Both the position numbers and the translations under genes were made by a program. Shown one piece after another: positions 9,644-36,190 of a DNA stretch of 64,000 nucleotides. Every line of letters starts with the position of its first letter. Position 1 is the stretch's first letter. The notes beneath the pieces were generated by a model. The model had not been told where the DNA came from and did not search any database. It saw nothing but the letters and a program-made list of their open reading frames with translations. The DNA is from SAR202 cluster bacterium bin87 (GTDB lineage Bacteria; Chloroflexota; Dehalococcoidia; Lucifugimonadales; UBA3495), in contig MPNC01000017.1 of the NCBI GenBank assembly GCA_002238825.1, positions 4,324-68,323 on the forward strand, given 5' to 3'.

Positions 9644-10627
9644 TTGACCGGAGACCCCCAGATGACCACCGCCGCCGACCATCAGATCGTCCCGCGCCAA
9701 TCCTCACCTCTCCCCGAGCTGCGGGCCGCCGACCGGGGCGTCGCTGAGTCGCTCGAGTCGGTCCTCGCCGACAACACCCGCCGGACCTACACCACCCAGT
9801 GGCGCAGCTTCACCGGCTGGTGCGACGAGGTGGGCCTCCGCTCTCTGCCCGCCGAGCCGCTCACCGTGGCTCGCTACCTGGCCGCCCGCGCGGGCTCCGG
9901 CGCCAGCATCGCCACCATCCGGCTGGCCACGTCGGCCATCTCGAAAGCGCACGAGTGGGCCAAGCTGGAATCACCCTGCCGGGACCCGGGCGTGCGCGCG
10001 TCTTTGAAAGGATGGGGGCGTAGGCTTGCCAAGCCCCAGCGCCAGTCCGGGGCTCTGACCGCCGACGTGCTCGCCGTGATCCGGCTCACCGCGGTGCAGC
10101 CTCGCAAACGCGGCCGCGGGTTCGAGACGCCCGAGCAGGCAGCGGAGCGGGGGAAGTTTGACGTGGCGCTGGTGGCGGCGCTGTCCGACGCCGGGTTGAG
10201 ACGCAGCGAGGCCGCTGCGCTGATCTGGGGCGGCGTGCAGCGCTGGGACGACGGCTCCGGCCGCATCACCGTGATTCGTTCGAAGACCGACGCCGAGGCC
10301 CAGGGCGCGGTGGTGGCCATAACCCCCGCCGCCATGGAGGCGCTTGCCGCCATCCGGCCGGCGGGGGTTGGCGGTGGCGAGAAGGTCTTCAGACTTTCGG
10401 AGTCGCAGATCGCCCGGCGGGTGAAGGCCATCGCCCAGGCCGCGGGGTTAGAGGATTGGGAGTACTTCAGCGGCCACAGCGGGCGCGTCGGCATGGCCCG
10501 GCGCATGGCCCAGAACGGCGCCCCCACCCACGAGATCGAGCGCCAGGGCCGCTGGAAACAGGGCGGCGGCATGGTCGGCCGCTACACCCGCGGCGAGACC
10601 GCCGGCTCGGCGCTCAGATACCTGTAG
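9644..10627 (+). CDS. Cre-like tyrosine recombinase (catalytic residues intact)
   Basis: 327-aa ORF. An alternative ATG at 9661 follows GGAGA. GLRRSE (Arg), RSKTD (Lys), GHSGRVG (His-x-x-Arg), GRW (Trp) and GRYTRG (Tyr) line up with the Cre catalytic set. Confidence 0.85.
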   Translation: MTGDPQMTTAADHQIVPRQSSPLPELRAADRGVAESLESVLADNTRRTYTTQWRSFTGWCDEVGLRSLPAEPLTVARYLAARAGSGASIATIRLATSAISKAHEWAKLESPCRDPGVRASLKGWGRRLAKPQRQSGALTADVLAVIRLTAVQPRKRGRGFETPEQAAERGKFDVALVAALSDAGLRRSEAAALIWGGVQRWDDGSGRITVIRSKTDAEAQGAVVAITPAAMEALAAIRPAGVGGGEKVFRLSESQIARRVKAIAQAAGLEDWEYFSGHSGRVGMARRMAQNGAPTHEIERQGRWKQGGGMVGRYTRGETAGSALRYL

Positions 10628-10656: not shown

Positions 10657-11322
10657 TCATAATCCGGCATCGATTGCGCCATTCATAAATTGTTGGGCAC
10701 ATTGGTAGTGCCAATTGGTTCGCAATTCAGTCCTGAACCTACGTAACTCGCACCCCGGTGTATGGGGCGGATTACTGGAATTGTAGAACACAATCTTCCG
10801 GCAATCGAAAGGCCGGGTTAGTTCACGAAATAACGGCAAATAGCTCTTGCCGCCGAAGAATACTATTGGTTCGCTGCACTCTTCGGGAATCAGGCACAAA
10901 TCCCTAAAATCTGTGCTGGCGTCTCGCCTAATCCCGGTGCCACGCTTCGCAGAGAAAGTGACGTCGTATGGTGGCGTCAGGAATTCACTATTGATCAGTC
11001 CCCAACCGGCGGAGAGGACATAGACACGGCCAGGGCCATAGGTTTCGACCAACCTGGAATAGGCCGGGTTCCGGTAAAGTTGCCATGCTGGTAGGAGACC
11101 TAATGGATTGGAACCCGGGCTTTCGTTGTAATCCAGTAACCTACGCCGCCATGATTCCCCATATTCGGATATATCGTCCGGGTGCGCGTACACATACTCC
11201 GGGTGGTGATGGTCAGGCATCTCTGCGGGTTTGGCCACGAACATAACCGGCGAGCCGTCCCCTCGCGTCAGTGAACCCGCCCCGTGTCGTTTGTCTCCAG
11301 CACACTGGATAACGAAAATCAC
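10657..11322 (-). CDS. hypothetical protein, DUF6884-like pattern
   Basis: 221-aa ORF in a lower-GC block. The pattern VIQCAGDK ... LYRNPAYSRL ... YVLSAGWGLI ... PPYDVTF resembles my recollection of DUF6884-type proteins. Confidence 0.5.
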   Translation of the reverse strand: MIFVIQCAGDKRHGAGSLTRGDGSPVMFVAKPAEMPDHHHPEYVYAHPDDISEYGESWRRRLLDYNESPGSNPLGLLPAWQLYRNPAYSRLVETYGPGRVYVLSAGWGLINSEFLTPPYDVTFSAKRGTGIRRDASTDFRDLCLIPEECSEPIVFFGGKSYLPLFRELTRPFDCRKIVFYNSSNPPHTPGCELRRFRTELRTNWHYQCAQQFMNGAIDAGL

Positions 11323-11429
11323 CGTTTCACCTCCATCGCAGCCACGGTGGGAGCCAGGGGTTTTGCCATGATCGGCTGAGAACGCCTGTCAATGCGGCCG
11401 GGCTCACATGGCCGTACAGTTGGGTCCCC

Positions 11430-11528
11430 CACGAGATCGAGCGCCGGGACCGCTGCACACAGGGTGGCAGCATGGTCGGCCACTACACCCGCGGCGAACC
11501 CGCAGGGTCCCCGCTGCGCTACCTGTAA
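11430..11528 (+). pseudogene. 3' fragment of a third Cre-like recombinase copy
   Basis: It translates to HEIERRDRCTQGGSMVGHYTRGEPAGSPLRYL*. The end of the 9644-10627 product reads HEIERQGRWKQGGGMVGRYTRGETAGSALRYL*. Confidence 0.85.
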
Positions 11529-11585
11529 TGTCGGTAACGCTAAAACGAGCAGCGTTCTCTACCGCGCTTTCGTTATGTAATGCCC

Positions 11586-11945
11586 TCAGCTGCTCGCCCG
11601 TGGGTTTGAGTCGGCTGCCTTGAGTTCATACCAAGTGAGACCACCTCCCTCCTGCTTCGCTTCAAGCCACCGCTGCAACCATCTCGGGCTCTCTCCAGAT
11701 CGTCGCCCAGCCAGCAGCCCTTCCACGCTGATGTCCTCATCCAAGTCGGGCCAATGAAGATGTTGTCCACCGGCGTGAATCTCCCAGTTATCCCGCTCCT
11801 CAGGCGTCGCGTACACCAAACGAGGATACCAATCCAGCGGCACGGATATGGTACGACCGTCCATCAGGTCGGCGGTCAACGTGTCCTCGCTAACGGCAAT
11901 GGCGATGGCAGCCGGTGCCGCCAGTTCAACCGCTGAAGTGGTCAT
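11586..11945 (-). CDS. DUF2442 domain protein
   Basis: Internal start MTTSAVEL at 11945. It has the HLHWPDLDEDISVEGLL signature and overlaps the DUF4160 stop by 20 nt. Confidence 0.65.
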   Translation of the reverse strand: MTTSAVELAAPAAIAIAVSEDTLTADLMDGRTISVPLDWYPRLVYATPEERDNWEIHAGGQHLHWPDLDEDISVEGLLAGRRSGESPRWLQRWLEAKQEGGGLTWYELKAADSNPRASS

Positions 11946-12162
11946 GCCAAGCCTCCAAAAATAACGCTTGATTCCGTTCGACGATGCTCCCGATACGGCG
12001 TATTTCCGTTCTGCTGAAATTGCCGCTGTTCTGCAACTCGACCGGATGCAACCAGAATTTGGCGAAAGCGTTGTCGCGCCTGATGTGTACATGCGGCGGT
12101 TCATTCCGATCGCCCGATACGAAGTAGAATCGGAACGGACCTTCTCTCAATATCGTCGGCAT
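11926..12162 (-). CDS. DUF4160 domain protein
   Basis: 78-aa ORF with the EPPHVHI signature. Confidence 0.7.
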   Translation of the reverse strand: MPTILREGPFRFYFVSGDRNEPPHVHIRRDNAFAKFWLHPVELQNSGNFSRTEIRRIGSIVERNQALFLEAWHDHFSG

Positions 12163-12679
12163 CGCTGTCTTAGTATTTTACTGCATGGCATTCTGATTTC
12201 TCCAACTTTAACGTTGCCAGCGAGCGGAGCGGCGAAAACCACCGTGATACTGACGCCCGCGCGGTACATTTTCTCTCCGCCTTTTACAGAACACGTACCT
12301 GCGCCCGAAAATTGGTATCAAGAACGCTTTGGATCGCTGAAACCACACGTACGAACGACCGTCATGAATTCCGTCTCATTCGCCCTGCGGTCGCACCGCA
12401 ATAACGACGGATTTCAATCGTGCACGGATGCGGATGTCGTAATGCGAGAGCCGGAAGTTTGGGAGGCGAAAATCGCAATCGGTCCGGTCCCAGGATCTCC
12501 CGAACAAAACAGTTTACGTAACAAATCTTGCGTGAATCAATGGAGGTATCAAAATAGGGGAGATTGTTGCAGGCGACCGCATCCCTGAGTCATTTGGGCG
12601 CGCTTGCCACTTACTCCGCGAACATCCCCAAACGTTCAGGTAGTGACGACGTGTTATGTTGTTTCATCAGCTTGACCTA

Positions 12680-13654
12680 TCAATTGGATTGTCCGACCGG
12701 TAAGCTGAACTCAAGGATTTTGGTCGCTTTTTTGTCTAGATCGTCTTCTTTCGTTTCCGATTCACCAGGTTCCAAGACCGCTAAGCCTACATCTGTAGAT
12801 TCTGTCACGGTGGCCTTCTCGAAAGGCCTCATGCCTCTGCCTATCCGGATTACGTTTTGGTCGAACCGTATATGCCTGTCATGTGCATACACCCTGAAAT
12901 CAGATTCTCTAAATAGACGAACGGTCACGGATGCGATTCGGTTACCATTGAGACGGTAGAATGCCGCTTCGATCGCATTCTGTATCGTATGGAGGGACCC
13001 GTTTCGGCCGGGAGACGAATAAAGCGTGATTTCGCAACCTTCAGAATCACGGTCGCAAAAATTCAGCAAGCTAATCACACCGTCTATGTTGTTATTTTGC
13101 ACCGCATACTGATCCACGACCACGATCACATTGGCATGGCTCGCAAGCCGTTGAAAGCGTTGCGTCCAAATATCCTCCCTCAATTCGCCCTGCTCGATAG
13201 GCTTTGCACTAAGGGTCTCACAATGGCCGAATCGCAAGGACGCATCTATATCCCAGAGCCTGACACCCTCCACGGATCCCAGACACATACTCTCGCCGTC
13301 TGGGATTCCCAAAATCGTGGCTTGACCATCTCCCAAGAGAGCGACCTCAAATTTTTCGTCTGGCACGGTCAGCGCATCAGCGGTTACCAGATTGTTCCAG
13401 TCGAACGCGCTTTCATCGGTGGGAATCCAGCGGTAACGGTTGCCGTTGTTCTTTGCTACGCTGGACCAAGCCACGGTCCACAATTTACGCGCACGAGGAT
13501 TAAGTTCATGTAACCTCGCGATTATCGAACGATCGCTGCGCGCAGGGCAAGTCAAAATGCCGAACCGTTCCCAATTGACCAGCAGTCGTTTGACATGGCT
13601 TGGCGTTGCAGAATTGTTTATGGCTTGCGATTGAATCGCGAATGTCACGAGCAT
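12680..13654 (-). CDS. hypothetical protein, partner of the upstream ATPase
   Basis: 324-aa ORF. Its ATG lies 14 nt after the ATPase stop and is preceded by GGGAG. The region is lower-GC. I recognise no motif. Confidence 0.6.
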   Translation of the reverse strand: MLVTFAIQSQAINNSATPSHVKRLLVNWERFGILTCPARSDRSIIARLHELNPRARKLWTVAWSSVAKNNGNRYRWIPTDESAFDWNNLVTADALTVPDEKFEVALLGDGQATILGIPDGESMCLGSVEGVRLWDIDASLRFGHCETLSAKPIEQGELREDIWTQRFQRLASHANVIVVVDQYAVQNNNIDGVISLLNFCDRDSEGCEITLYSSPGRNGSLHTIQNAIEAAFYRLNGNRIASVTVRLFRESDFRVYAHDRHIRFDQNVIRIGRGMRPFEKATVTESTDVGLAVLEPGESETKEDDLDKKATKILEFSLPVGQSN

Positions 13655-13668
13655 ATTCCACTCCCAAT

Positions 13669-15237
13669 CTAGGCCATTAACTCTTCGAAGCCTTCCTCAA
13701 AGAATCCGCCGGGCCATGGGTCTATGAAGTCCCCATTCTCATCAAGGCGGAGTTGGGTAATAGCACTTCCTTCGGTGTCGGAGGCATTAGGATCCACGTA
13801 CAGGACGGACACGTCCGAATGTTTCAATTTACCTTCTCTGATGCCTCTCTGAATTCGGAGGATTATGAGTTCACTATGAGTTTCTATGATCCATTGCTTT
13901 TCTGATCTCCCAGAAATGGTTTCAATGAATAAGTCTGCCAAGTTAGCTTGCAACTTGGGGTGCAGGTGAATCTCTGGCTGTTCGACACACAATATCCGGC
14001 CTTCAACGCCCGTAAAGAAATCAACTCCCTCCACTATCACCGGTAGAATCTGGTTTATGCCAAATCCAACGTCTGGCAACGTTACGGCCGTGCCAGACTC
14101 GCGTTCGACGAGTACGACTGCAACGTGCTCCCCAGATACGGCTATATCGCCTACCTTGTGAATAGCCATTTGATATGGGATGCGGAACTCGTGAAACCAA
14201 TTGTTCACCAGACGAATGAGACCTGGTTGGTAATACAACCTATGGTGAGTGAATTCGCCACGCAGGCCCGAAAAAAAGGTGTCCACGCCAGGAATCTTAT
14301 AAAGTCTTTCGGGATAACTCCTTAACGGCCCCAAATACCTTACTGCACTCAATTGCGCCGAAAAAGATGATGGGATATTTTTCAGTTCTAGGATTTCCTC
14401 CCAGTTCAACCGCTCATCTATTGATTGGAGAAGTACCTCGTCAGGGTCACGAGCCAAAGCCCTCGCATTTGCACGTGCTCGGGGCAGGTCTCTATCCAAT
14501 GGGAACAGTTCGTTCAATTGTTGCTCTGACATTTGCTCCAATTCTTCGTATTGGCGTAACGTATTGTTGGTTTCCAACACCCTTTCCCTTCCTCTTTCCC
14601 GAACGAGGCCTTGTTCGCGTTCGGGTAGGAGCGGCTCGTCGCGTTCCAGGAGCTTCTCAATTTCCAATAGTTTGAGCTGTGGCACAAATTGCCTGTCGTG
14701 AGCAAAATCCAAAATCTTGGTATGGTAGGTAACGTCCGGGGTTGACACCGAGGCGTGCCACCAACTCCCTATATCATTGGTCAATTCAGTTGAAATGAGT
14801 CTCTGTCCATCCCGCGTCACCTCATAAGTAGCTGTCGTCAATATCCCTGAATCCTCTAATTGTTCGTCACCTTTCTCGTCGAAGTCCGACACGCTGTCGA
14901 AAGCCAAACGAACGTTTAGATGATTTCCTCTGCTGTCGAATTTCAAGCTCAGAGCGAGTTGGTTGTCCAAGTTGTGCCGGTGAAGCAAAGCCGGGTAACT
15001 GCCCAAGTCTATGTATTCTCCTCTTGTTACTAGCCCCCAAATTGTGGAGGCGTTTCCTGCTTCCAGCGCCGACTGCTTGAGCATCAAGATCGCCTGTATG
15101 ATCGAGCTCTTTCCGCCAGAATTGGGCCCGTAAATGAGGGTGATTTTTGACATCGGTGCTTTCTGTTCTACGTCGCCAAACGCTTTGAAATTCCTGATAC
15201 CGACTTCCAACAGCATTGAGTGCCCCCGGGTTCGCAT
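13669..15237 (-). CDS. AAA15/AAA21-type (ABC-like) ATPase with a DUF3696-like C-terminus
   Basis: 522-aa ORF, with an alternative start MLLEVGIRNFKAF at 15216. It has Walker A GPNSGGKSS, a Walker B/D-loop-like ILCVEQPEIHLHP, an H-loop-like IIETHSE, and the C-terminal LDENGDFIDPWPGGFFEE. Confidence 0.75.
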   Translation of the reverse strand: MRTRGHSMLLEVGIRNFKAFGDVEQKAPMSKITLIYGPNSGGKSSIIQAILMLKQSALEAGNASTIWGLVTRGEYIDLGSYPALLHRHNLDNQLALSLKFDSRGNHLNVRLAFDSVSDFDEKGDEQLEDSGILTTATYEVTRDGQRLISTELTNDIGSWWHASVSTPDVTYHTKILDFAHDRQFVPQLKLLEIEKLLERDEPLLPEREQGLVRERGRERVLETNNTLRQYEELEQMSEQQLNELFPLDRDLPRARANARALARDPDEVLLQSIDERLNWEEILELKNIPSSFSAQLSAVRYLGPLRSYPERLYKIPGVDTFFSGLRGEFTHHRLYYQPGLIRLVNNWFHEFRIPYQMAIHKVGDIAVSGEHVAVVLVERESGTAVTLPDVGFGINQILPVIVEGVDFFTGVEGRILCVEQPEIHLHPKLQANLADLFIETISGRSEKQWIIETHSELIILRIQRGIREGKLKHSDVSVLYVDPNASDTEGSAITQLRLDENGDFIDPWPGGFFEEGFEELMA

Positions 15238-15469
15238 GTGTTCTGTCTAAGCGTGTTTACGTTACTCTCGATCGCCAGAATAGATCATGGGACTCTGCGT
15301 ATGCAGGGATAGGCCGCCAAAGGAAACACCAGAAAACTGAAGGACCCTGGGTTGATGTAGCACCCGGCTCCTTCTCGTCATTGTAGATGGTGCCTGCAGT
15401 GATCGACCGCAATCGATTACGAAAAAGCGAGCAACCCCAATTGGCAAACAACGGGTTTCTGATAGCCTG

Positions 15470-16969
15470 TCATGCCTCTCCAAACACCAATGGAACCTCC
15501 GCTCCCAAATCCGCCGCCATCTCCTCCAACTGTTCCAGCGCGGCGCGCAGGTCCTCCATGATCTCCTCGGCGATGACGTCGGGCGGTGGCAGGTTTTCGG
15601 AATCTTCCAGGCTCTCGTCGCGTAGCCAGAAGATGTCCAGGTTGGCCTTGTCCCGCTGGGTCAGCTCGTCGTAGGTGAAGCGGCGGAACCGCTCGGACTC
15701 CTCCCGCTGCGTCCGATCGTCGGCGCAGTAGCAGGACACGAAGTCGTCCAGGTGCGCCCGGGTCAGCGGGTTGGTTTTCAGCGTGAAGTGCTGGTTGGTG
15801 CGCAGATCGTAGATCCACAGCTCCCGCGTCCACGGCGTCTCGCTGGCCGGCCTGCGGTCGAAGAACAGCACGTTGGCCTTGACCCCCTGGGCGTAGAACA
15901 CGCCGGTGGGCAGCCGCAGCAGGGTGTGTGCGTCGCATTCATCGAGTAGCTTTCGGCGGATGGTCTCGCCGGCGCCGCCCTCGAACAGCACGTTGTCGGG
16001 CAGCACGATGGCCGCGCTGCCGTTCATATTCAGCAGCGTGCGGACGTGCTGCAGGAAGCTCAGCTGCCGGTTGCTGGTGGTGGCCCAGAAGTCGGGGCGC
16101 TCCACCGTCAGGCTCTGCCGCTCCGTCCGGCCCTCCTCGTTGACAAAGGTCAGCGTGGACGTGCGGCCGAAAGGCGGGTTGGTCAGCACCATGTCGTAGT
16201 TGACGCTGGTCGGCGCGCGCAGGCTGTCGTCAACCCTGATGTTGGTGCGGTCACCGCCGATGCCGTGCAGGTACAGGTTCATCACGCCCAGCCGCGCCGC
16301 GCTGTCCACGATCTCCCAGCCGTGCAGCGCGTCGTTGCGCAGAAAGTCCGACTGCTCACGGTTCATGGTCGGATGATGCTGGACGATATAGTCGTGGGCG
16401 GCCAGCAGGAACCCGCCGGTGCCGCAGGCCGGGTCGCAGATGGTCGTGCCCGTTCCGGGCCGCATAACGTCCACAATGGCCTGGATCAGCGGGCGCGGCG
16501 TGAAGTACTGGCCGGCGCCGGTCTTCACGTCCTGGGCGTTGCGCTCCAGCAGCGACTCGTAGGCGTCGCCCTTCACGTCAGCGCTGAGGCCGTGCCAGTT
16601 CTCGCTGTCGATGAGCTCCTTGACCAGCCGGGTCAGCATGGCCGGTTCCTGGATGCGGCTCTGGGCCTTGCCGAAGATCACCCCCAGCGTGCCCGGCTGG
16701 TGGGACAGGGTTTCCAGGATGTAGCGATAGTGGATTTCCAGCTCCGCGCCGTCCCGGGCCAGCAGGCTGGGCCAGTCGCAGCCCACGGGGATGGGCGGCG
16801 GCTGGTAGTCGGGCAGAATGGTGAAGGGCGGCTGGGTGCGCTCGTGCATCATCTTGAGGAAGATGAGATAGGTGAGCTGCTCCAGGTAGTCGCCGTAGGA
16901 CAGGCCGGCGTTGCGCAGCACGTCGCAGTAGTTCCACAGCTTCTGGCCGATAGATGATGCAGTGGTCAT
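15470..16969 (-). CDS. hsdM: type I R-M N6-adenine DNA methyltransferase subunit
   Basis: Internal start MTTASSIGQKLWNYCDVLR at 16969. It has the HsdM N-terminal domain, the AdoMet motif DPACGTGGFL and the catalytic NPPFG. Its ATG overlaps the hsdS stop (ATGA). Confidence 0.9.
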   Translation of the reverse strand: MTTASSIGQKLWNYCDVLRNAGLSYGDYLEQLTYLIFLKMMHERTQPPFTILPDYQPPPIPVGCDWPSLLARDGAELEIHYRYILETLSHQPGTLGVIFGKAQSRIQEPAMLTRLVKELIDSENWHGLSADVKGDAYESLLERNAQDVKTGAGQYFTPRPLIQAIVDVMRPGTGTTICDPACGTGGFLLAAHDYIVQHHPTMNREQSDFLRNDALHGWEIVDSAARLGVMNLYLHGIGGDRTNIRVDDSLRAPTSVNYDMVLTNPPFGRTSTLTFVNEEGRTERQSLTVERPDFWATTSNRQLSFLQHVRTLLNMNGSAAIVLPDNVLFEGGAGETIRRKLLDECDAHTLLRLPTGVFYAQGVKANVLFFDRRPASETPWTRELWIYDLRTNQHFTLKTNPLTRAHLDDFVSCYCADDRTQREESERFRRFTYDELTQRDKANLDIFWLRDESLEDSENLPPPDVIAEEIMEDLRAALEQLEEMAADLGAEVPLVFGEA

Positions 16970-18540
16970 GCGGATGCCTCTTCGAGAGCTAGTTGCGGCG
17001 GCACCTTTTGGACCCGCCGCCGGCGCGACGGCTGTTTTTTGCTTGCGGATGCCGCCGCCTGCTCCGCCTCCCGCTGGGCGCGGATGCGTTCCAGCAGGAC
17101 CGACGCCGGCTCGTCGTCGGGATCCTGGGGCACCAGCTGGCCGGCGAAGGCGCGCTTGAGGATGCTCTGGCGTAGCCGCTCGGCTCGTTGCAGGCTGGCC
17201 TCCACCGCCGCCGCCGCCTGCTGGATTACCGACAGCCGCCGTTCCACCTCCGCTACGATGCGGCGCTGATCCGCGAGGGGCGGAATCCCAACGACCCATG
17301 TTTCGGCTCGCTGTGCGCCCAAGTGATGGATACCTACGCCTCTGGCCGCACGACCCAGCGCCCCTGACCGCGCATCGGATAACAGGTGATAAAACAGATA
17401 AGGGATTACATCAGATGCTACCCTGACACGTATCAACGTGTTCTGAAAACAACAGCCGTCTACTTCGCTGTTCCAGACTGCGGGTTTACCTACCTCGTCT
17501 GCGGTTCCCGATGCTTCGGAAAGTAAAATATCACCGGTCAACAATCCGTAGGTTTCGTATTCCGCCGACGTGAAGTCCATCTCTTTGACGTCTGATAGGT
17601 CTAGGCCGTCCCATGTGACGTTAGCCGCCCGCATATAGGGGCGCATGTTTGGTCCGGTGGCTCGTTTAGGCGACCGTTGCCGGCCCAACCGCACCTCACC
17701 GAGCTGAGCTAGAGTTGCCCACCCCCACCCTTCCGGCAACGGTGGCAGGTCGGACGTGTCAGGCGCGGCCGGCTCCTTGTACTTGCCCCGCCGTTTCTCC
17801 TGGGTCTGCCAGCGCGACCGCCTTTCCGCCAAGATGCGCTCCAGCAGGACATCGGCCGGCTCGTACTCCCGAGCCTCGGCGCGGGCCAGTTCTGCCTCGG
17901 TGGGCACCAGCTCGCCGGAGCACGCTGCCCGCAGGACGCTGGCCCGGTAGCGTTTCAGGTTCGCCTGCGTCCGCCGCAGCGCCGCCACCGACGCATCCAG
18001 GCGCGTGAACTGCTTCTCAATCTCCGCCACGATGCGACGCTGTTCGGGGAAGGGCGGGAGTGGAAATATGGCATCGCTCAGAAAACCGGGAGGCACACGC
18101 AGTTGCCCCGCCGTGCCCGCCATATTCCTCTGTGCTTCTTTACGAAACTCTTCTCGCAACAAAAAATACGCCAAGTATTCGTTGGAAAGCGCATCCGACG
18201 CACGCACCACGTGGAACTCAGTAGATCCGCAACCTGAACCATTGGTTAGACCCTTCGCTATCGCAATCTTCCCGTTTTCCATGCACGGGGTAATCTTGGC
18301 GAACAGTACGTCGCCCTCTGAAAACCGTGTGTAACCCTTGCGAACCTCGCTGTACTTCCTCACCTGCGAAGCATCCATCAGGCCAGTGCCGGCCTCTACA
18401 GCCGCCATCGGGACGAAAGATATGGGACAGTCGCCAACGATAGGATTCGTGAACGTCCGCGGGTTAACGGCGCATACGTCGGCAAGGGCGGCAGCCGACC
18501 ATCCTCGAGGCAGATCTCGTTGTTGAGAATTCAGTGTCAT
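16966..18540 (-). CDS. hsdS: type I R-M specificity subunit
   Basis: Internal start MTLNSQQRDLPRGW at 18540. There are two target-recognition domains, each followed by a conserved helix (FPEQRRIVAEIEKQF / LADQRRIVAEVERRL). Confidence 0.85.
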   Translation of the reverse strand: MTLNSQQRDLPRGWSAAALADVCAVNPRTFTNPIVGDCPISFVPMAAVEAGTGLMDASQVRKYSEVRKGYTRFSEGDVLFAKITPCMENGKIAIAKGLTNGSGCGSTEFHVVRASDALSNEYLAYFLLREEFRKEAQRNMAGTAGQLRVPPGFLSDAIFPLPPFPEQRRIVAEIEKQFTRLDASVAALRRTQANLKRYRASVLRAACSGELVPTEAELARAEAREYEPADVLLERILAERRSRWQTQEKRRGKYKEPAAPDTSDLPPLPEGWGWATLAQLGEVRLGRQRSPKRATGPNMRPYMRAANVTWDGLDLSDVKEMDFTSAEYETYGLLTGDILLSEASGTADEVGKPAVWNSEVDGCCFQNTLIRVRVASDVIPYLFYHLLSDARSGALGRAARGVGIHHLGAQRAETWVVGIPPLADQRRIVAEVERRLSVIQQAAAAVEASLQRAERLRQSILKRAFAGQLVPQDPDDEPASVLLERIRAQREAEQAAASASKKQPSRRRRVQKVPPQLALEEASA

Positions 18541-18563
18541 CGACCGGTCTAAACGACGGCTCG

Positions 18564-18794
18564 TTACGACACGAAAGGCGCCGGGGCTGGTACTTCTACT
18601 TCCACCGCGGCGCACGTCGCTTTGGGGATGGGGTCTCCGTCCTCAACCATGCCTTCCAGGTGGAAGACGGCAGCCTCCTGGATGAGGTCCCGGGTTTCCT
18701 CAAAGGTATCGGCGGCCGCAATGCAGCCTGGTATGTCGGGCAGATGCGCCGAATACCCGTTGCCGGTTTTGACGATAAGCGCCACGTATTTCAT
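18564..18794 (-). CDS. hicB: HicB-family antitoxin
   Basis: Start MKYVALIVKTGNGYSAHLPDIPGC. Its ATG overlaps the hicA stop (ATGA). Confidence 0.75.
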   Translation of the reverse strand: MKYVALIVKTGNGYSAHLPDIPGCIAAADTFEETRDLIQEAAVFHLEGMVEDGDPIPKATCAAVEVEVPAPAPFVS

Positions 18795-18997
18795 CGGTAT
18801 TCCCTCCTGTCCAGTCCCGCCTGGTCGAGGATGCTGTACCACGTTCGGATATCCAGTTCCTTACCGGGGTTCCCTGCGATTGTCACCCGACCCGGCTTTT
18901 CGGGGTGCCTGTATTGGCGATGGCTGCCTTTAGTCCTCACCCGGAACCAGCCGTCCTGTTCAACCATGCGGATCGCTTCACGTACTCTGGGAGGCAT
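18791..18997 (-). CDS. hicA: HicA-family mRNA interferase toxin
   Basis: 68 aa, with GWFRVRTKGSHRQYRHPEKPGRVTIAGNPGKEL. Confidence 0.8.
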   Translation of the reverse strand: MPPRVREAIRMVEQDGWFRVRTKGSHRQYRHPEKPGRVTIAGNPGKELDIRTWYSILDQAGLDRREYR

Positions 18998-19351: not shown

Positions 19352-22123
19352 CTACGTCACCAGCTCCAGGTTCAGCTCCTCTATGATGGCCTGCAAATCG
19401 TCGCCGAACAAGTCGTAGGCTGCAATCAAACCGCCCCGTTGGTCTAACGGCGAGTTCTGAAGGTCTCGCATCTCCGCGCTCACGTTGCCGGCGATGCGGT
19501 CGCGGATGGCCTCCAGCCACCACCGTTGCTCGTCGGTGAACTCCCGCCCCGCGGTTTCCTGCATGGCCAGCCAGCCTTCGAACCGTTGGTTCACATGGTC
19601 AGCGAACGGGGCCAGCTCGTCGGCCTCGCCGGTGGCATAGCGCACCAGCGCGACGATGTCCGCCAGTTGCCGTTGACCGGAGCCACGCACCTTGGACTCG
19701 TCGAGTCGCTGGTACGCCTGCCACAGCCGCTCGGTGGTCCACGACCGGGGCGGCGCCTGCATGGCATCGGCCAGCGCGCGGATGTCGTCCAGGTGCAGCC
19801 GTTGCCGGTAGGGCCGCTCGTACAGCACCTGCAACGCAGTGATCTCATCCCGGTTCTCCTCGATGAACCAGCGGAAGGACTGAATCTCGATCTGGGCGGC
19901 ATCCTCGGTGAAGCCGGCTTCCAGAACCACGTCCTTGCTCACGGTATCAATGGTCTGCTCGTGAGACTGGTGGATCGTCTCCAACCGCTGGCGCAGTTTA
20001 GGATTGGATGCGAAGGGTGCTGCGGCGTCTTCCCGCAGTTTCTTCTCCGCATCGTCGATCGCCTCGGACGGCGGTTCGTCCAGGCCGGTAGCCTCCTTCG
20101 CTGCTTCCAGCGCGGCATCGGGATCGGTGGCCCGCACCAGGTTGGCGATGAGGGTTTGCAGGGAGACGCCTTCAGCTGCAGTTTCTATGGCTTCGCGTTC
20201 CGCTGGCGATATCTTGCGTGAAAGGCGCGCCAAACGGCTGGCCAGCGATGACAGATGGTCGGGCTCGCGGCTGCCCTTGGCGATGAGGTCCAAGAGTTGC
20301 CCGAAGGTCTTCGTGGGTTCGCGCTCCAGCGAGTAGGAGTCCGACAGCTCCGACTCCGTAACGCCCACCGCGTCAATGATGACGAAACGGTCTTTGTTGG
20401 GCGCGTCGGGCGTGACTGCGTTGAAATCGGTGGGCGAGATCACGCGCACGCCGCGACCCTTCATCTGCTCGAAGAAGTTGCGACTCTGCACGTTGCGCAT
20501 GAAAAACACGACCTCAACGGGCTTGATATCGGTGCCAGTGGCGATCATGTCCACCGTCACCACGATGCGCGGGTGGTAGCTGTTGCGAAACGTCGCAATC
20601 AGGCTCTCCGGATTCACCCCGGTTGTGCGGTACGTGATCTTCTGGCAGAACTCGTTGCCCTTGCCGAACTCCGTTCGCACGATGTCCACGATGTCGTCGG
20701 CGTGGCTGTCGTCCTTGGCGAAGATGATGGTCTTGGGCACCTCGGTACGACCGGGGAATATCTCGGTGAACAGCTTGTCTCGGAACGTGCGGATGACGGT
20801 GCGGATCTGGTCCTCCGCCACCACGTCTCGATCAAGCTGGTTGGGTCTGTAGGTCAGATCCTCGTCCAACTCTTCGGCCCATCGCGCCTTCTTGGCCTGG
20901 CGGTTGCGGCGGTCTATATGCTGACCCGCCTCAACGCTCGATCCCTCCTCAGTGATCTGCGTGCGGATGCGGTAGATATCCGAATCGACGTTTACGCCGT
21001 CGGCCACGGCTTCCTCGTGCGTGTACTCCATCACCAGGTTCTGCTGGAAGAACCCAAATGTCAGCGCGGAAGGGGTCGCGGTGAGGCCGATGAGGAAGGC
21101 GTCGAAGTACTCCAGTACCTGCCGCCAAAGGTTGTAGATGGAGCGGTGGCACTCGTCGGTGATGATGAAGTCAAAAGTGTCGATTGAGATGTCGGGGTTG
21201 TACTCCACGGTGCCCGGCTGTGAGTTGACCTGGGCGAAGTCGAAGCCGGACAGTTCCTCCTTCTCCGGTTCGAGATCTTCTCCCCGTAGCATGGAATACA
21301 CCCGCTGGATGGTCGAAATGCACACCCGACTCACTGGGTCGATGCGTGCCGAGTCCATCAGCTGGACGTTGTACAACTCGGTGAACTTCCGGTTTTCCTC
21401 AGGCGTGCTGAACCCCTGGAACTCCCGCAGGGTCTGGCGGCCCAGGTTGTTGCGGTCCACCAGGAACAGCACACGCTTGGCTCCCGCGTGCTTGATGAGC
21501 CGGTACACCAGGTTGCAGGCGGTGAAGGTCTTACCGCTGCCGGTGGCCATCTGAATCAGAGCGCGCGGCCGGCCTTCGGCCAGCGACTGCTCCAGATTGA
21601 GGATGGCGCGTTCCTGCACCGGCCACAGAGCCGACGCGTCCAAGACCGGCATGGTTCGCAAGCTCCGGCGCAGGTTGGATTGGGTCGACGATGTCGTTCC
21701 TGAACCGACCCACCGCATCAGTGTGTCCGGCGTGTGGAAAGCGAACACGTTGCGACTGCGGGGTTCCGGGTCCAGCAGGTTGGTGAACCGTGTCTCCACC
21801 CCGGTGGTCTCGTAGATGAAAGGTAGCGGTTTACAGTGTGCGGGCAGGATGTCCGGTAACCCGTCGCTGTACTTGTGCGATTGGGTCTCCACACCGGTGA
21901 GGGTGTAGCCGGCCGGCTTGGCCTCGACCACGCCGGCCGCCTTGCCATCAACGTACAGTAAGTAATCGGCAGTACCGTGGCCCGGTTTCAGTCCAAACTC
22001 GCGCACCGCAACGCCGCTAGGGGCGGACAGGTTGACCGAGCCGGCGTCCTGCACCGCCCATCCCGCCTGCTCCAGGAGGTTGTCAATTTGGATGCGGGCC
22101 TTCTGCTCCAGTGTCATACTCAC
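19352..22123 (-). CDS. hsdR: type I restriction enzyme R subunit
   Basis: 923-aa ORF. It has an N-terminal nuclease-like region and the helicase motifs MATGSGKTFTA, TDECHRS and LIGLTATP. Confidence 0.9.
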   Translation of the reverse strand: MSMTLEQKARIQIDNLLEQAGWAVQDAGSVNLSAPSGVAVREFGLKPGHGTADYLLYVDGKAAGVVEAKPAGYTLTGVETQSHKYSDGLPDILPAHCKPLPFIYETTGVETRFTNLLDPEPRSRNVFAFHTPDTLMRWVGSGTTSSTQSNLRRSLRTMPVLDASALWPVQERAILNLEQSLAEGRPRALIQMATGSGKTFTACNLVYRLIKHAGAKRVLFLVDRNNLGRQTLREFQGFSTPEENRKFTELYNVQLMDSARIDPVSRVCISTIQRVYSMLRGEDLEPEKEELSGFDFAQVNSQPGTVEYNPDISIDTFDFIITDECHRSIYNLWRQVLEYFDAFLIGLTATPSALTFGFFQQNLVMEYTHEEAVADGVNVDSDIYRIRTQITEEGSSVEAGQHIDRRNRQAKKARWAEELDEDLTYRPNQLDRDVVAEDQIRTVIRTFRDKLFTEIFPGRTEVPKTIIFAKDDSHADDIVDIVRTEFGKGNEFCQKITYRTTGVNPESLIATFRNSYHPRIVVTVDMIATGTDIKPVEVVFFMRNVQSRNFFEQMKGRGVRVISPTDFNAVTPDAPNKDRFVIIDAVGVTESELSDSYSLEREPTKTFGQLLDLIAKGSREPDHLSSLASRLARLSRKISPAEREAIETAAEGVSLQTLIANLVRATDPDAALEAAKEATGLDEPPSEAIDDAEKKLREDAAAPFASNPKLRQRLETIHQSHEQTIDTVSKDVVLEAGFTEDAAQIEIQSFRWFIEENRDEITALQVLYERPYRQRLHLDDIRALADAMQAPPRSWTTERLWQAYQRLDESKVRGSGQRQLADIVALVRYATGEADELAPFADHVNQRFEGWLAMQETAGREFTDEQRWWLEAIRDRIAGNVSAEMRDLQNSPLDQRGGLIAAYDLFGDDLQAIIEELNLELVT

Positions 22124-25787: not shown

Positions 25788-26072
25788 AGCCGCCGGCCTC
25801 GAGCATCGGCGGCATCCTGCCCGTCGCGTACGCCTCCTCAACCTGAGGCGCCAACCACTGTCCCACCGTTCCGCCGTCTGGCACCACGATGTTGGCCAGG
25901 AACTCGCTCTCCAACGTCGTGAGGCCGGACTCCACCGCCTCCAACTTGGCCCGGATGATCAGGAGCAACGCCCGCCAGCGCTGCCTGCAAGCCTGCTCCC
26001 ACGCCGACTGCTGAGCGACGGCCGTCCGCCTGGCCTTCCGCAGGGTGAGGGCGAAGTCGTCGATCGGCGGGA
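25765..26072 (-). pseudogene. 3' fragment of a paralogue of the 53925-54428 gene, truncated by the Tn3-type IR
   Basis: The minus-strand translation is IPPIDDF...QACRQRWRALLLIIRAKLEAVESGLTTLESEFLANIVVPDGGTVGQW. It aligns with LPDPGDF...QACRQRWRALLLVIKAKLEAVTAGISTVETEFLANIVLPDNTTAGEW. The homology stops at the IR. Confidence 0.75.
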
Positions 26073-26073
26073 T

Positions 26074-26110
26074 CGGGTCGATTCCGGTATGGGCAGGATC
26101 GTACGCTAGG
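26074..26110 (+). repeat. Tn3-family terminal inverted repeat (left)
   Basis: cGGGTCGATTCCGGTATGGGCAGGATCGTACGCTAGG. Confidence 0.8.
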
Positions 26111-26685
26111 GGGAGTGATGCCGGTTGAGTGTGCGATAGACGGTTGGTCTTGAGACGGAGAAGAGCTCGGCGAGGTCGCTGATGGAATACTCGCCGATGG
26201 CGTGCATGCGGCAGAGTTCCCGCTGCCGTCGATCGGACAACTTGGGCTGCTTGCCGCGCAACTTCCCCCGAGCGCGCGGGCGATGGCCATGCCCTCGCGG
26301 GTGCGCATGCGGATGAGATCGGCCTCGAACTCGGCGAAGGCGGCGAGGATATTGAAGAACATCTTTCCCATGGGATCGTCCGGGTCGTAGAGCGCCCGGC
26401 CCAGGGCCAGTTTCACGCCGCGTTCCCGCAGCCGGTCGGCGATGGCGCGCGCATCCGGGACAGACCTGGCCAGGCGGTCGAGTTTGGGCACGATCAGGGT
26501 GTCGCCGGAGCGCACGGCGGCGAGGGCCTGGTCGAGGCCGGGTCGGGCGCGGTTCTGCCGGTGAGGCCGTGATCAGTGTAGATGCGATCCTCGGCGACGC
26601 CGAGTTCCAGGAGGGCCTGGCGCTGGGCAGCCAGATCCTGCCGGTCGGTGGAACAGCGGGCGTATCCGATGAGGGTTGCGGTCAT
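26106..26685 (-). pseudogene. serine recombinase (resolvase) with at least two frameshifts
   Basis: Frame 1 reads MTATLIGYARCSTDRQDLAAQRQALLELGVAEDRIYTDHGLTG. Frame 2 reads NRARPGLDQALAAVRSGDTLIVPKLDRLARSVPDAR...FAEFEADLIRMRTREGMAIARA. Frame 3 reads RGKLRGKQPKLSDRRQRELCRMHAIGEYSISDLAELFSVSRPTVYRTLNRHHSP*. Confidence 0.85.
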
Positions 26686-26880
26686 GGGGGAAGTACACGA
26701 ATAGGGTCCCGCATCCGCAATAATTACCGTACTATTCATATGAGACGCTCCTGGTGCCGGTCTGGCGGAGGTCGGAGCGACGGTCTGGGCCGTACGCTGG
26801 ACGTTCCCCTTACGGACAGCGCCGCGCATGGCGGGATGAACGAATAACGGAGCGCAACTGGTGGCCGGACATCCTGCGGG

Positions 26881-27345
26881 TTGCTGCCACCCCTGACCAG
26901 CGGCGCCCAGCCTCCCAGCCAGCTGCTGCGAAAGTTCGCGGCCTATCCGCGCCAGCACGAACTGGCCGTCACTCTCCGCGAAATCGGACGGGTCGAACGC
27001 ACCCTCTTCATCGTCGACTGGATGCTCGACGCCGATATGCAGCGTCGAGCCAACACCGGCCTGAACAAGGGCGAGGCTCATCACGCGCTCAAGAACGCCC
27101 TCCACATCGCGCGCCAGGGCGAAATCCGCGACCGCTCCAGCGAGGGCCAGCATTACCGCATGCCCGGGCTCAACCTGCTCGCCGCCATCGTCGTTTACTG
27201 GAACACCGCCCACCTCGGCGGAGCGGTTGGACAGCGGAAACACGCCGGGCCGACCGTCGAGCCCGAGCTCCTGGCCCACATCTCACCCCTGGGATGGGCC
27301 CGCATCCTGCTGACCGGCGAATACCGGTGGCCAAAGCGCCGATAG
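26881..27345 (+). pseudogene. C-terminal stub of a Tn3-family transposase
   Basis: YPRQHELAVTLREIGRVERTLFIVDWMLDADMQRRANTGLNKGEAHHALKNALHIARQGEIRDRS...LNLLAAIVVYWNT...ISPLGWARILLTGEYRW matches the conserved TnpA C-terminus. About 850 upstream codons are missing. Confidence 0.8.
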
Positions 27346-28167: not shown

Positions 28168-29703
28168 TCAGACCAAGCGTCCTACCCTGTCGAACGGTAC
28201 CTCGGCAATGCTCCGGTAGATATCGACCACTTCGTCATTGAATTCAAACCGATTGGCGAGCGTGTCCACAACCACTTGGACTATCAGGGACGCGCATCCT
28301 ATCACCGAAGCGGGCGGAGCGTTGTTGACCGGGGCCGAGCACCCCAGTGCGGGCGTCGCGAAGTCGTTACGTCCATCACCTCCGGGGATAACAGGATATT
28401 TGGCGCCTTCCTCCCTGAGGTGGATCGGAGTATCCCCTGCCAACACTTGACGCTGCACCCGTGCCACACTGCCCCCACGGTAAAGCGCACCGGATACCAG
28501 TGGCTTTCTCCATTTCTCGGCGACCATGGCCAACGCAGGTACGAATGCATCGTTGCCAGTAGCGTCGATCACGATATCCGCGCTCGAGATGAGTTCACAT
28601 ATCCTACCGGGAGTCATCGGAGCTTCCGGAAACTCGCCAACCTCGGTCCAGGGAGCGTGCTTTTCAATCACGTGATGGACAGCTTGCACCTTGGGCTTGC
28701 CCACCTGGTCATGGCCCGCGACGTGTCTGACCACGTTCTCGGGTAAAAGTACGTCGCCGTCCACGATGTCCAAGTGGCCGAGCCCGCTTTCCGCGAGCGT
28801 GGTCCCAACGTAACCTCCCAGAGCGCCGGCCCCGAACATAGTTGCCCTGATGGTCCGCAGCACCGGCGCGTCAGGGCCCGCGCGCGCGATCAGGTTGTTT
28901 TCATCGGTTGGTCCTGGCTGCAATGCGATCGCCTCCACATCATTATTCATTCCTGCACACGCCATCACCAGCGCGTCTTTCGCTTCGTACCGCTCCCAAC
29001 AGAATAGGATGAAATCCACTCCGCCGCTGGATACGAACGGTTCAGGCCTACGCCGGTCGTCCAATTGGCGCCTTAGCGGTTTGGCTTGGGCCCGGGATAG
29101 GCACCGGAACACTTCCGAAAGCTGACGGGGCGGCGGGGTGGTCAATCGGCTCGGGTGGAACCAGAGGCCGCGCAGATGATTCGACGACCTGGCGCGCCCC
29201 GGACCCACATCGATCCTTGGTGGAGCCCGGTTCACAACACCATGCAGATCTCCCCAACCGCCTCTGTGGATGCCGAGCTCATCACGGTCGAAGGTTACAA
29301 CGATGGGCAGTTTCCTCTGAAAGTTCAGGAAAGCGTCATATCCCAAGTCATCGCCTTCCCAGCCATGCTCTGCACTCTCGCACCATTCCTCAATACGCGA
29401 GAAAAATCCCTCTGCAGTCTCCCAATCGCGGCTGGAATCTCCGTCCTGCCACATACAGACAAACCCACCAAGCGTGGAGTGGTTGGTGTCAAGGCCATCG
29501 ACGAACAGGGCCGGAGGCCGAAATGGCCATCCTTCCACGATCATGATATCCATGGTCGTTGCCGCGGTCAGGGGCGCAAACGCCTCATGGATCGGGCCGC
29601 GCCAGCGCGATTGATTCACAGCCGATACCGGAGCGAAGCCGGCCGCCTTCAGATCGCACTCGAACGCTTCTAACGACTCCATGTGGAAATGGTCGTCCGT
29701 CAT
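28168..29703 (-). CDS. cap2: CBASS Cap2-like E2/E1 fusion protein
   Basis: 511-aa ORF. The N-terminal E2-like region has HSTLGGFVCMWQDGD. The C-terminal ThiF/E1 adenylation domain has MFGAGALGGYVGTTLAESGLGHLDIVDGDVLLPENVVRH. Its start is 5 nt after the CD-NTase stop. Confidence 0.8.
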   Translation of the reverse strand: MTDDHFHMESLEAFECDLKAAGFAPVSAVNQSRWRGPIHEAFAPLTAATTMDIMIVEGWPFRPPALFVDGLDTNHSTLGGFVCMWQDGDSSRDWETAEGFFSRIEEWCESAEHGWEGDDLGYDAFLNFQRKLPIVVTFDRDELGIHRGGWGDLHGVVNRAPPRIDVGPGRARSSNHLRGLWFHPSRLTTPPPRQLSEVFRCLSRAQAKPLRRQLDDRRRPEPFVSSGGVDFILFCWERYEAKDALVMACAGMNNDVEAIALQPGPTDENNLIARAGPDAPVLRTIRATMFGAGALGGYVGTTLAESGLGHLDIVDGDVLLPENVVRHVAGHDQVGKPKVQAVHHVIEKHAPWTEVGEFPEAPMTPGRICELISSADIVIDATGNDAFVPALAMVAEKWRKPLVSGALYRGGSVARVQRQVLAGDTPIHLREEGAKYPVIPGGDGRNDFATPALGCSAPVNNAPPASVIGCASLIVQVVVDTLANRFEFNDEVVDIYRSIAEVPFDRVGRLV

Positions 29704-29708
29704 GGCGC

Positions 29709-30743
29709 TTATCCGAACCTGCGCGCCTCATTCGGCCGCTGGGCTACCGGTGTGGAACCAGCACCAGCTGCGGCGGTGCGGGCGCTACGCCCCGAGCCTT
29801 GGCCAGCACGGTTTCCGCTCCCGACCGCGTTGGATCCTCCACCACCAGAACTCCCGCCTTTGCCGAAGCTATCGCCGAACAGTTCCTGCCAGATCTTGAT
29901 GGCCTTCTCAGCCGAAGGCTCAGCTTTCGCTCGCTTCGCGGTTCCCGCGTAAGACTGGACTCGGTTCCTGAAGTTGGCGTATTTACGCTGGTCCCAGTGC
30001 CGGTTGAAGTTCTCCGTCGGCAGCACCGGATTCTTGATCTCCGGCATATTGGGGTGCTGCTGCAGGTAGTTGTCCATCCGGGACAGGACGGTCTCCAGCG
30101 TGTCGGCCACCGTGCTCACCGCCGCGGTTCCTTTATCGGACGCCTTGATAGTGTTGCCGGCCAGGGTGGTCAGGAGAATCGACTTGGCGGTAAAGCTGTT
30201 CTTGTGGTCCCGAAGGTGCTTGAGCAACCTGACCACTCGCTTCAGATTGCCACCGGTGATGCGATTCTTTTCGTTGAACCAGTCGCGGTATCCGGTACCG
30301 TCAGTTTCTTCGAATTTGTTGTCAACCCGGTTGCAGACGTAGTGCTTACCACCGCTGGTCACCCGGGGTACTGTGTCGAGGTGAAAATCGCCGGCGTAGT
30401 CGACGGTCACGCACCTGGTCTTGAGCCTGAGCTTGTCGACGTAGTTCTTGTTACCAGCCAGCGTCTTGTTAATCGCGTGGACGTAGTCTTTGGCTTCCCA
30501 CTTGGGGTTCGGGTTCATCACGATCTGGATGTCGGCATCATACTCATCGTTGTCGTCCACCGGCTTGATGAGTGTACCCAGGGCATAGGACCCCTGCTTG
30601 TCCATTGTTTGGTACCCAGGCAGGTTGTCCTTGAGATAGTCGTTCACCGCGCCCACGGATGTTTCCAGTCGGTCCAGCCGGCTCTGATTTAGGTTCACCT
30701 CATCCCTGAGAAACTCGGCGAACTGCTGAATATTCTTGGTCAA
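29709..30743 (-). CDS. CD-NTase (SMODS-type cGAS/DncV-like nucleotidyltransferase) with a long Gly-terminated tail
   Basis: 344-aa ORF with a TTG start after AAGGAG. It has QGSYALGTLIKP...EYDADIQIV and DFHLDTVPR (GS / DxD / third-Asp pattern). About 50 residues of G/S/A-rich tail end in ...EARRFG*. Confidence 0.8.
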   Translation of the reverse strand: MTKNIQQFAEFLRDEVNLNQSRLDRLETSVGAVNDYLKDNLPGYQTMDKQGSYALGTLIKPVDDNDEYDADIQIVMNPNPKWEAKDYVHAINKTLAGNKNYVDKLRLKTRCVTVDYAGDFHLDTVPRVTSGGKHYVCNRVDNKFEETDGTGYRDWFNEKNRITGGNLKRVVRLLKHLRDHKNSFTAKSILLTTLAGNTIKASDKGTAAVSTVADTLETVLSRMDNYLQQHPNMPEIKNPVLPTENFNRHWDQRKYANFRNRVQSYAGTAKRAKAEPSAEKAIKIWQELFGDSFGKGGSSGGGGSNAVGSGNRAGQGSGRSARTAAAGAGSTPVAQRPNEARRFG

Positions 30744-30761
30744 TGTCCTTACTCCTTACAG

Positions 30762-36170: not shown

Positions 36171-36190
36171 TGCGGTCCCCCATTCCTGAT

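Follow-up and report, generated by a model that had tools for sequence, protein, structure and literature searches.

What is encoded by two adjacent, low-G+C genes that directly follow a type I restriction-modification (R-M) system in SAR202 cluster bacterium bin87, and do they form a defence system in their own right? The genes are located in a stretch of 64,000 nt from contig MPNC01000017.1 (assembly GCA_002238825.1, positions 4,324 to 68,323), hereafter the window. All coordinates without a locus prefix are window positions and (-) denotes the minus strand. The upstream gene codes for an ATPase of the ATP-binding cassette (ABC) type with a DUF3696 tail, the downstream gene for a protein of 324 aa referred to as the partner. 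An earlier note made from the sequence alone had proposed that both constitute an undescribed defence pair.

With moderate confidence we regard the pair as an uncatalogued two-gene defence module that resembles Menshen and HEC-03 but lacks NsnA, and in which the ATPase both senses infection and gates a phosphodiesterase effector of the phospholipase D (PLD) type. We take the two genes to form a self-contained, horizontally mobile conflict module, most likely directed against phages. It varies the Menshen/HEC-03 theme, without a sensor gene, and is not a wholly new kind of system. The term undescribed is hence justified insofar as no named system claims the pair, but not for the kind of system, for which NsnB-NsnC with its PLD-type class and HEC-03 are precedents.

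Layout of the two genes

Both open reading frames (ORFs) are co-directional on the minus strand. The ATPase ORF spans 13669..15237 (522 aa) and the partner ORF 12680..13654 (324 aa). The ATPase stop codon TAG (13669-13671) and the partner ATG (13652-13654) are separated by 14 nt, and within this gap a ribosome-binding site GGGAG (13661-13665 (-)) is found 6 nt before the partner ATG. All these features were read in the sequence as the earlier note had given them. Its ATPase length of 522 aa applies to the longest ORF; translation probably begins from the second ATG (15216, M8), which gives a protein of 515 aa (13669..15216 (-)). This start is favoured because GGGGG (15223-15227) is located 6 nt upstream and because independent gene calls and homologues agree on it: in the calls on identical metagenomic contigs as well as in nearly all homologues the ATPase begins with MLxE(L/V)G(L/I)RNFK.

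The G+C content amounts to 0.48-0.53 across 12000-15500 and to 0.65-0.67 in hsdM (500-nt windows), which places the module ~15 points below the adjoining genes. The low G+C content reported before is therefore real, while the ~73% once quoted for hsdM was too high and the contrast is smaller.

The pair is kept together across genomes

We compared 13 independent genomic contexts that range from metagenome-assembled genomes of Dehalococcoidia and other Chloroflexota to Aeromonas hydrophila. The ATPase is located upstream of the partner in all 13 loci and directly upstream in 12, with an intergenic gap of 2-15 nt in most of them. The remaining locus, L016, carries an IS110 element (L016 6510-7586) between both genes. 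The co-occurrence check suggested earlier thus came out in favour of a two-gene module. A gene for a ParB-DUF262 protein (NsnA) was absent within ±5-8 kb at 13/13 loci, the window locus included. In the window the gene upstream of the ATPase is hsdM, not NsnA, and neither DUF262 nor ParB occurs among the called genes within ±8 kb. A third conserved gene, be it NsnA or the middle component of an ABC-three-component (ABC-3C) system, was rejected as the flanks differ in every unrelated locus.

The two proteins diverge together. Pairwise identities of ATPases and partners correlate across 10 loci (r = 0.79, Mantel p = 2e-4), in line with the two-gene module postulated before, and partners located beside ATPases with just 40-43% identity to that of the window still align as homologues in both of their domains (hhalign probability 100%, E 1e-39 to 1e-82). 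They also diverge fast. At three syntenic sites, where related genomes carry the pair at the same position, identities are 79-99% for the flanking genes, 61-81% for the ATPase and 41-68% for the partner. Conflict genes that undergo diversifying selection or replacement of alleles would be expected to outpace their neighbours in this way.

Disrupted copies were observed as well. In L012 the ATPase is intact while an IS-type transposase splits the partner gene (L012 6044-7867), and L014 retains only a 152-aa C-terminal remnant of the partner (L014 6926-7384) with no ATPase. An intact partner without ATPase was not seen among the loci examined. This absence and the disrupted partner of L012 lend weak support to the partner being a toxic effector.

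The size of the partner family was determined by an exhaustive search with a hidden Markov model (HMM) covering 1.84 billion representatives. At E ≤ 1e-3 it returned 747 clusters (50% identity), and at the stricter limit of E ≤ 1e-10 there were 513. Full-length matches in proteins of 310-350 aa make up nearly all of them, and both ORFs are intact with their catalytic motifs kept across the ~750 clusters. A scan with a single peptide pattern matched 4 of 185,579 species genomes; the number is that low because only one pattern was used, and the exhaustive search implies a far larger family. A profile of the C-terminal domain only, searched for other N-termini as in the PB-PLD1 or BrxL type, retrieved just proteins of the same architecture.

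Relatives of the partner are termed 'hypothetical protein' where any name is given. The window partner is matched by no PADLOC, NCBIfam or PHROG model, and the partners of four divergent loci by no PADLOC model apart from marginal NsnC matches (5e-3 and 5e-4). Running PADLOC, as the earlier note had advised, consequently gave matches for the ATPase, an unmodelled partner and no named system for the pair. For want of a model of its effector, a conserved module of ~750 clusters thus escapes PADLOC, NCBIfam and PHROGs.

The ATPase belongs to a clade with a DUF3696 tail

In Pfam the ATPase matches AAA_15 (3e-24), AAA_21 (2e-20) and DUF3696 (2.5e-5; 24.9 bits at a cut-off of 22). The three best PADLOC matches are nearly tied, namely the HEC-03 ATPase (HEC-03B, 2.6e-51), NsnB (9.4e-51) and PDC-M55A (1e-49), and the NsnB model is covered end to end (model positions 1-337 of 345). 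AriA (1e-26), GajA (~1e-11) and PtuA (~6e-9) follow at a distance. The ATPases of divergent family members give the same picture. Judged by these matches the protein is a member of the DUF3696-tailed ABC clade. The former assignment to the ATPase class of Gabija and Septu is correct at the level of the superfamily but misses the nearest relatives, which are NsnB and HEC-03 (~1e-50 vs 1e-9 to 1e-11 for PtuA and GajA).

Motif conservation was read from an alignment of 20 homologues. The Walker A motif GPNSGGKSS (15103..15129 (-), residues 30-38 of the 515-aa form) is invariant, as is an atypical Walker B/D-loop CVEQPEIHLHP (13957..13989 (-), residues 410-420), in which the acidic pair is E-Q in place of the canonical D-E. 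The GxG signature DVGFGxNQ and the H-loop ETHSE are found too, the latter being invariant. The motifs listed in the earlier note together with the DUF3696 tail, which exceeds the Pfam cut-off, are accordingly genuine. The E-Q pair suggests that the protein acts as an ATP-binding switch with slow hydrolysis.

Two further regions deserve attention. A charged helical insert (14380..14680 (-), ~residues 180-280) is hypervariable: its length and sequence differ strongly across the alignment while the ATPase lobes are near-invariant, and tblastn alignments of distant loci break at this site. It is a candidate sensing surface. The C-terminal DUF3696 tail (PF12476, 13675..13824 (-)) is strongly conserved in the 20 homologues. 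Based on the AlphaFold 3 models of NsnB-NsnC (PMC12065111), we predict it to be the docking site of the partner.

The partner carries a PLD-like domain with a conserved site

The partner consists of an N-terminal α/β domain (13205..13654 (-), residues 1-150) and a C-terminal PLD-fold domain of the MIT_C type with a short β/α extension (12680..13204 (-), residues 151-324, stop included), wherein residues ~150-290 are the stretch matching the PLD/MIT_C fold. Against Pfam MIT_C (PF16565) the partner scores 3e-5 with 24.4 bits, just below the 25-bit cut-off, and a precomputed PF16565 match is present in many homologues. Pfam describes MIT_C as 'phospholipase D-like domain at the C-terminus of MIT'.

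An AlphaFold2 model of the whole partner (27 homologues) reached a pLDDT (predicted local distance difference test) of 89.9 and a predicted template modelling score (pTM) of 0.86. Foldseek of this model against PDB yielded the C-domain of MITD1 (E 3e-6 to 2e-5, TM 0.64 on target), followed by the bacterial PLD 1f0i (9e-4), the PLD nuclease domains of SauUSI (2e-3) and BfiI (9.5e-3). PLD3 and phosphatidylserine synthase are among the fold matches as well. The partner-family profile finds MITD1 in PDB by sequence alone (E 8e-6), and in the resulting alignment 'VVIVDqYA' is placed on 'VWIEDPYI' and 'HDRHIRFD..IGRG' on 'HDREIRFN..IGRG'. The earlier note could recognise no motif in the partner and recommended a Foldseek search, which with its MITD1 and PLD-fold matches speaks against a motif-less protein.

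The second of the aligned blocks is an HKD-like motif, H258-D-R260-H-I-R263-F-D265-x6-G272-R-G274 (12833..12883 (-)). Members of the PLD (HKD) superfamily possess the motif HxK(x4)D(x6)GSxN and form their active site from two such motifs; nucleases with a single HKD motif do so as dimers. The H-x-R-x4-D-x6-G-x-G block of the partner resembles one HKD motif with arginine replacing lysine. D181 (13112..13114 (-)), an acidic residue that follows strand 1 in the PLD-like domain, aligns with E of 'VWIEDPY' in MITD1. D181, H258, R260, H261, R263, F264, D265, G272 and G274 are invariant in 27 close homologues. When the family is sampled more widely by its 150 best representatives, D181 is kept in 145/146, R260 in 141/141, H258 in 126/141, R263 in 132/141 and G274 in 137/140 sequences. 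Once considered unassignable, the effector can, going by profile and modelled fold, be placed among the MIT_C-type domains with a PLD fold, and its HxR...D site is conserved. In one relative of 574 aa (P0303) the N-terminus is different and is followed by two tandem PLD-like domains (residues 177-343 and 395-559). Such a tandem arrangement fits single-copy members building the active site as dimers, and the PLD domains of the partner may hence dimerise likewise.

Modelled alone, the N-domain also folds into a separate α/β domain (pLDDT 87) with conserved W28, G32, E129 and R132. Foldseek against PDB gave no significant match for it (best E 0.28); PIN-containing entries (PINA 5yww, VapC 5ecw, EST1A 2dok) match weakly with E ≥ 0.3 and TMq 0.35-0.37. 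No conserved acidic residue occurs at position 8, the end of strand 1, in the 27 close homologues. An inactive adaptor similar to PIN domains is possible.

Genomic setting

Directly upstream of the module the type I R-M system is arranged as hsdR-(HicA/HicB)-hsdS-hsdM. The HicA/HicB pair (~18564-18997 (-)) is located between hsdR (19352-22123) and hsdS (16966-18615). The longest ORF of hsdM (15470-17299 (-)) would encode 609 aa including an N-terminal extension rich in Gly, Pro and Ala. This extension is probably untranslated, since hsdM is called with 499 aa on identical contigs.

Downstream of the module a low-G+C stretch of 517 nt without convincing gene (12163-12679) reaches from the partner stop to the start of a DUF4160 gene. 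Neither an Rfam match nor a terminator above chance was detected in it, and an Rfam scan of 11000-16000 gave no match at all. DUF4160 (~78 aa, 11926-12162) and the overlapping DUF2442 (119 aa, 11586-11945), both (-), are the genes next to the module on this side. DUF4160/DUF2442 pairs have been described as a toxin-antitoxin system, and DUF4160 itself is among the effector domains of NsnC (Li et al., PMC12065111). Between this pair and a tyrosine integrase (9644-10627 (+)) lies a DUF6884-like protein of 221 aa (10657-11322 (-)) with weak matches to DUF6884 (2e-5, below cut-off) and DpdC (7e-6).

Farther upstream an operon similar to cyclic-oligonucleotide-based antiphage signalling systems (CBASS; 28168-31793 (-)) codes for a patatin phospholipase (30762-31793), a SMODS CD-NTase (29709-30743) as well as a ThiF/E1-like protein (28168-29703). 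Separate from this operon, a protein of 1010 aa (33210-36242 (-)) fuses AAA_16/STAND, TPR and SMODS domains. Two adjacent ORFs at 25838-27279 (-) each comprise part of the catalytic domain of a serine recombinase (Resolvase), which suggests a frameshifted or split gene. CBASS, the SMODS-STAND fusion and the split serine recombinase are all located within 20 kb of the module. Its gene content marks the neighbourhood as a defence island, and the type I R-M system, HicAB, the DUF4160/DUF2442 pair and the nearby CBASS agree with the position proposed in the earlier note.

Proposed mechanism and points against it

If the pair works as a gated effector system, the ATPase would oligomerise and its DUF3696 tails would grip the N-terminal α/β domain of the partner. 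Infection would be sensed by the ATPase itself, plausibly via the hypervariable helical insert, with no ParB-DUF262 sensor involved. An ATP-dependent conformational change would then release or activate the partner, whereupon its C-terminal PLD-fold domains would pair to form a composite H-x-R...D phosphodiesterase site. The active partner would degrade nucleic acid, such that either phage replication is stopped or the cell is killed.

A bolder version, which we put forward only tentatively, assumes that the pair founds a widespread unnamed family (~750 clusters) of sensor-less 'NsnBC-type' immune modules, with infection detected by the ATPase insert and the MIT_C-type PLD domain being a true H-x-R...D enzyme. 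Its substrate might then be membrane lipid or nucleotide instead of DNA or RNA.

Several points weigh against a gated, DNA- or RNA-degrading defence module. With respect to the effector, the canonical HKD lysine is an arginine in the partner and no GSxN follows. The MIT_C domain of human MITD1, the only one known to be characterised, has its role in membrane association and is not known to possess enzymatic activity. Concerning the ATPase, the E-Q Walker B implies that ATP hydrolysis may be slow or absent, and the NsnC-like docking model is drawn by analogy because the N-domain has no significant PIN match. The genomic distribution is not uniform in its support either: tblastn of the partner against collections of sequenced plasmids and of phages gave no match, and the loci L004, L015 and L017 sit among housekeeping genes, not in defence islands. 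Finally, a native promoter had been anticipated in 15238-15469, yet a signal scan of this region revealed neither a sigma-70-like promoter nor a terminator above chance. The presumed promoter region from the hsdM stop to the favoured ATPase start (15217..15469 (-)) shows no consensus promoter above chance, and the two genes may be transcribed by read-through from hsdM.

Alternative explanations

The most serious alternative concerns the target. Instead of nucleic acid, the effector could attack membranes or lipids, or a different phosphodiester, for instance a nucleotide signal. Set free by the ATPase, the MIT_C-type PLD domain would bind phospholipid or hydrolyse it, with death caused by membrane damage. 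A lipid, membrane or small-molecule target stays in play because the only characterised MIT_C mediates membrane association. The nearest solved relative by both sequence and fold is indeed the membrane-associating C-domain of MITD1, true phospholipases D and phosphatidylserine synthase are among the fold matches, and lipid-targeting defence effectors are common, the patatin CBASS effector of the window being one. However, the PLD-fold nucleases SauUSI and BfiI score similarly, and no membrane segment or signal sequence was noticed in either protein, though no formal prediction was made. We consider such a target unlikely but worth keeping in mind. Still less probable is that the pair merely stabilises mobile elements as a toxin-antitoxin or addiction module, in which the ATPase neutralises a toxic partner without a dedicated role against phages. 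AAA_21 is annotated as 'putative AbiEii toxin, type IV TA', loci adjoin recombinases, IS elements and other toxin-antitoxin pairs, and the partner was never seen intact without its ATPase. Then again, the nearest characterised relatives of the ATPase, HEC-03 and Menshen, are phage-defence components, several loci lie outside any obvious mobile element, and the strong diversification relative to the flanks characterises host-parasite conflict more than simple addiction. Moreover, reading the pair as a toxin-antitoxin module does not preclude a role in abortive infection.

That the pair is a decayed, non-functional Menshen system which lost NsnA appears very improbable and is largely refuted. 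It is true that the ATPase covers the NsnB model end to end, that the layout of the partner and its PLD-type domain fit the described NsnC class, and that weak NsnC matches (5e-3, 5e-4) occur. But with a DUF262/ParB gene missing within ±5-8 kb at 13/13 loci, ORFs intact and catalytic motifs invariant over ~750 clusters and both proteins diverging in concert, decay is hard to reconcile with the data, the more so as a validated two-gene relative without NsnA exists in HEC-03. A housekeeping function in DNA repair or chromosome maintenance, with an SMC/RecF/SbcC-like ATPase and an accessory nuclease, is likewise very unlikely. Weak N-terminal matches of the ATPase to SMC_N, RecF and Rad50 models and the proximity of UvrD, RuvX or NurA at some loci would fit. 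Yet these matches are confined to the Walker A region (residues ~10-55) and score far under the curated cut-offs. Patchy distribution (4/185,579 species genomes in the single-peptide scan), atypical G+C content, flanks that differ in unrelated genomes and divergence much faster than that of adjacent housekeeping genes point the other way. An ATPase-gated defence module of the Menshen/HEC-03 kind is therefore the reading we retain.

If this reading holds true, an NsnB-NsnC core works without a ParB-type sensor, which bears on how Menshen-class ATPases sense infection. The pair moreover represents a tractable bacterial system for asking whether MIT_C-type PLD domains, as in human MITD1 and BREX BrxL, are enzymes. 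Should the 'NsnBC-type' version be correct, it would provide the first catalytic function for the domain common to eukaryotic MITD1 and BREX BrxL. That an ABC ATPase gates a nuclease-like effector is already a well-established theme, which is extended here.

Comparison with known systems

Menshen consists of NsnA-NsnB-NsnC, with PB-PLD1 as one C-terminal class of NsnC (Li et al. 2025, PMC12065111). The ATPase described here has the same domain make-up as NsnB (ABC/AAA_15 plus DUF3696 tail), a full-length match to the NsnB HMM, a GxG signature and a Walker B that departs from the canonical form. The match is not specific to Menshen, given that the ATPase models of HEC-03 and PDC-M55 score equally. 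NsnB likewise carries the GxG signature, and its Walker B pair is changed from D-E to E-N (PMC12065111), whereas E-Q is found here. The variable helical insert makes the ATPase exceed the NsnB model by ~170 residues. The order of genes agrees, the effector following the ATPase by a few nt. AlphaFold 3 models of Menshen predict an NsnB tetramer in which DUF3696 tails, arranged in pairs, clamp NsnC by its N-terminal domain. Gating of the C-terminal effector by ATP binding or hydrolysis was proposed, similar to PARIS and Septu (PMC12065111).

NsnC and the partner both combine an N-terminal α/β domain of ~150 aa with a C-terminal effector domain. PB-PLD1 has been described as an MIT_C-like PLD fold with D/E after β2 and an HDR motif before β5 (PMC12065111). 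Going by this description the partner is alike in its MIT_C similarity, the acidic residue after an early strand (D181) and the HDR motif (H258-D-R260). The N-domain may or may not correspond to the inPIN domain of NsnC, as PIN entries match it only at E ≥ 0.3 with TMq 0.35-0.37. Above all, NsnA (ParB-DUF262 + ParBDB), the defining gene of Menshen, is absent at 13/13 loci. The published census, which is the only systematic one of Menshen, was anchored on NsnA, and a family without NsnA falls outside of it by construction.

HEC-03 is composed of a DUF3696 ABC ATPase and a PIN-domain protein and was validated in E. coli, where both of its two genes are required (Payne et al. 2024, bioRxiv 10.1101/2024.01.29.577857). 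Compared with the validated sequences from Table S2 of the preprint, the two systems share two genes without separate sensor, an effector gene immediately downstream and an association with restriction-type systems. The window ATPase is 25% identical to the validated Pseudomonas cichorii protein (BLASTP, E 3e-29). Of the HEC-03 motifs MEQPEIHLHP and DVGFGVSQ, EQPEIHLHP and DVGFGxxQ are common to both ATPases. In contrast, the HEC-03 partner is a VapC-like PIN protein of 157 aa with a single domain, while 324 aa with a PLD-fold domain are found here. The pair is thus not HEC-03: the partners are unrelated (hhalign of the N-domain against the HEC-03 partner, probability 0.2%) and the PADLOC model of the HEC-03 partner is not matched. 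PDC-M55, a PADLOC candidate made up of three protein families (FAM_00005>>FAM_02935>>FAM_00004), was rejected as only the ATPase matches and the partner hits no PDC model at E ≤ 0.1.

PARIS (AriA-AriB), Septu and Gabija also pair an oligomeric AAA_15/OLD-type ABC ATPase with a nuclease-type effector that it presumably gates. Their effectors are different, however, namely Toprim in AriB, HNH in PtuB and, for Gabija, Toprim fused in GajA in addition to the helicase GajB. AriA, PtuA and GajA furthermore lack a DUF3696 tail and are much less similar. Identity with any of the three was rejected on account of the weak ATPase matches and the lack of a Toprim or HNH domain in either protein. ABC-3C systems comprise three genes, an ABC ATPase, a middle component and an effector, and were rejected as only two genes are conserved across loci.

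With regard to the effector domain, MIT_C of MITD1 is the best match by sequence profile and fold and has the acidic residue and the HDRxIRF...IGRG block in common with the partner. A MIT_C-type domain is also carried by the C-terminus of BREX (bacteriophage exclusion) BrxL, as noted by Li et al. (PMC12065111). In MITD1 the domain is joined to an ESCRT-III-binding MIT domain and used for membrane association, whereas in the partner it is presumably gated by an ABC ATPase within a bacterial conflict module.

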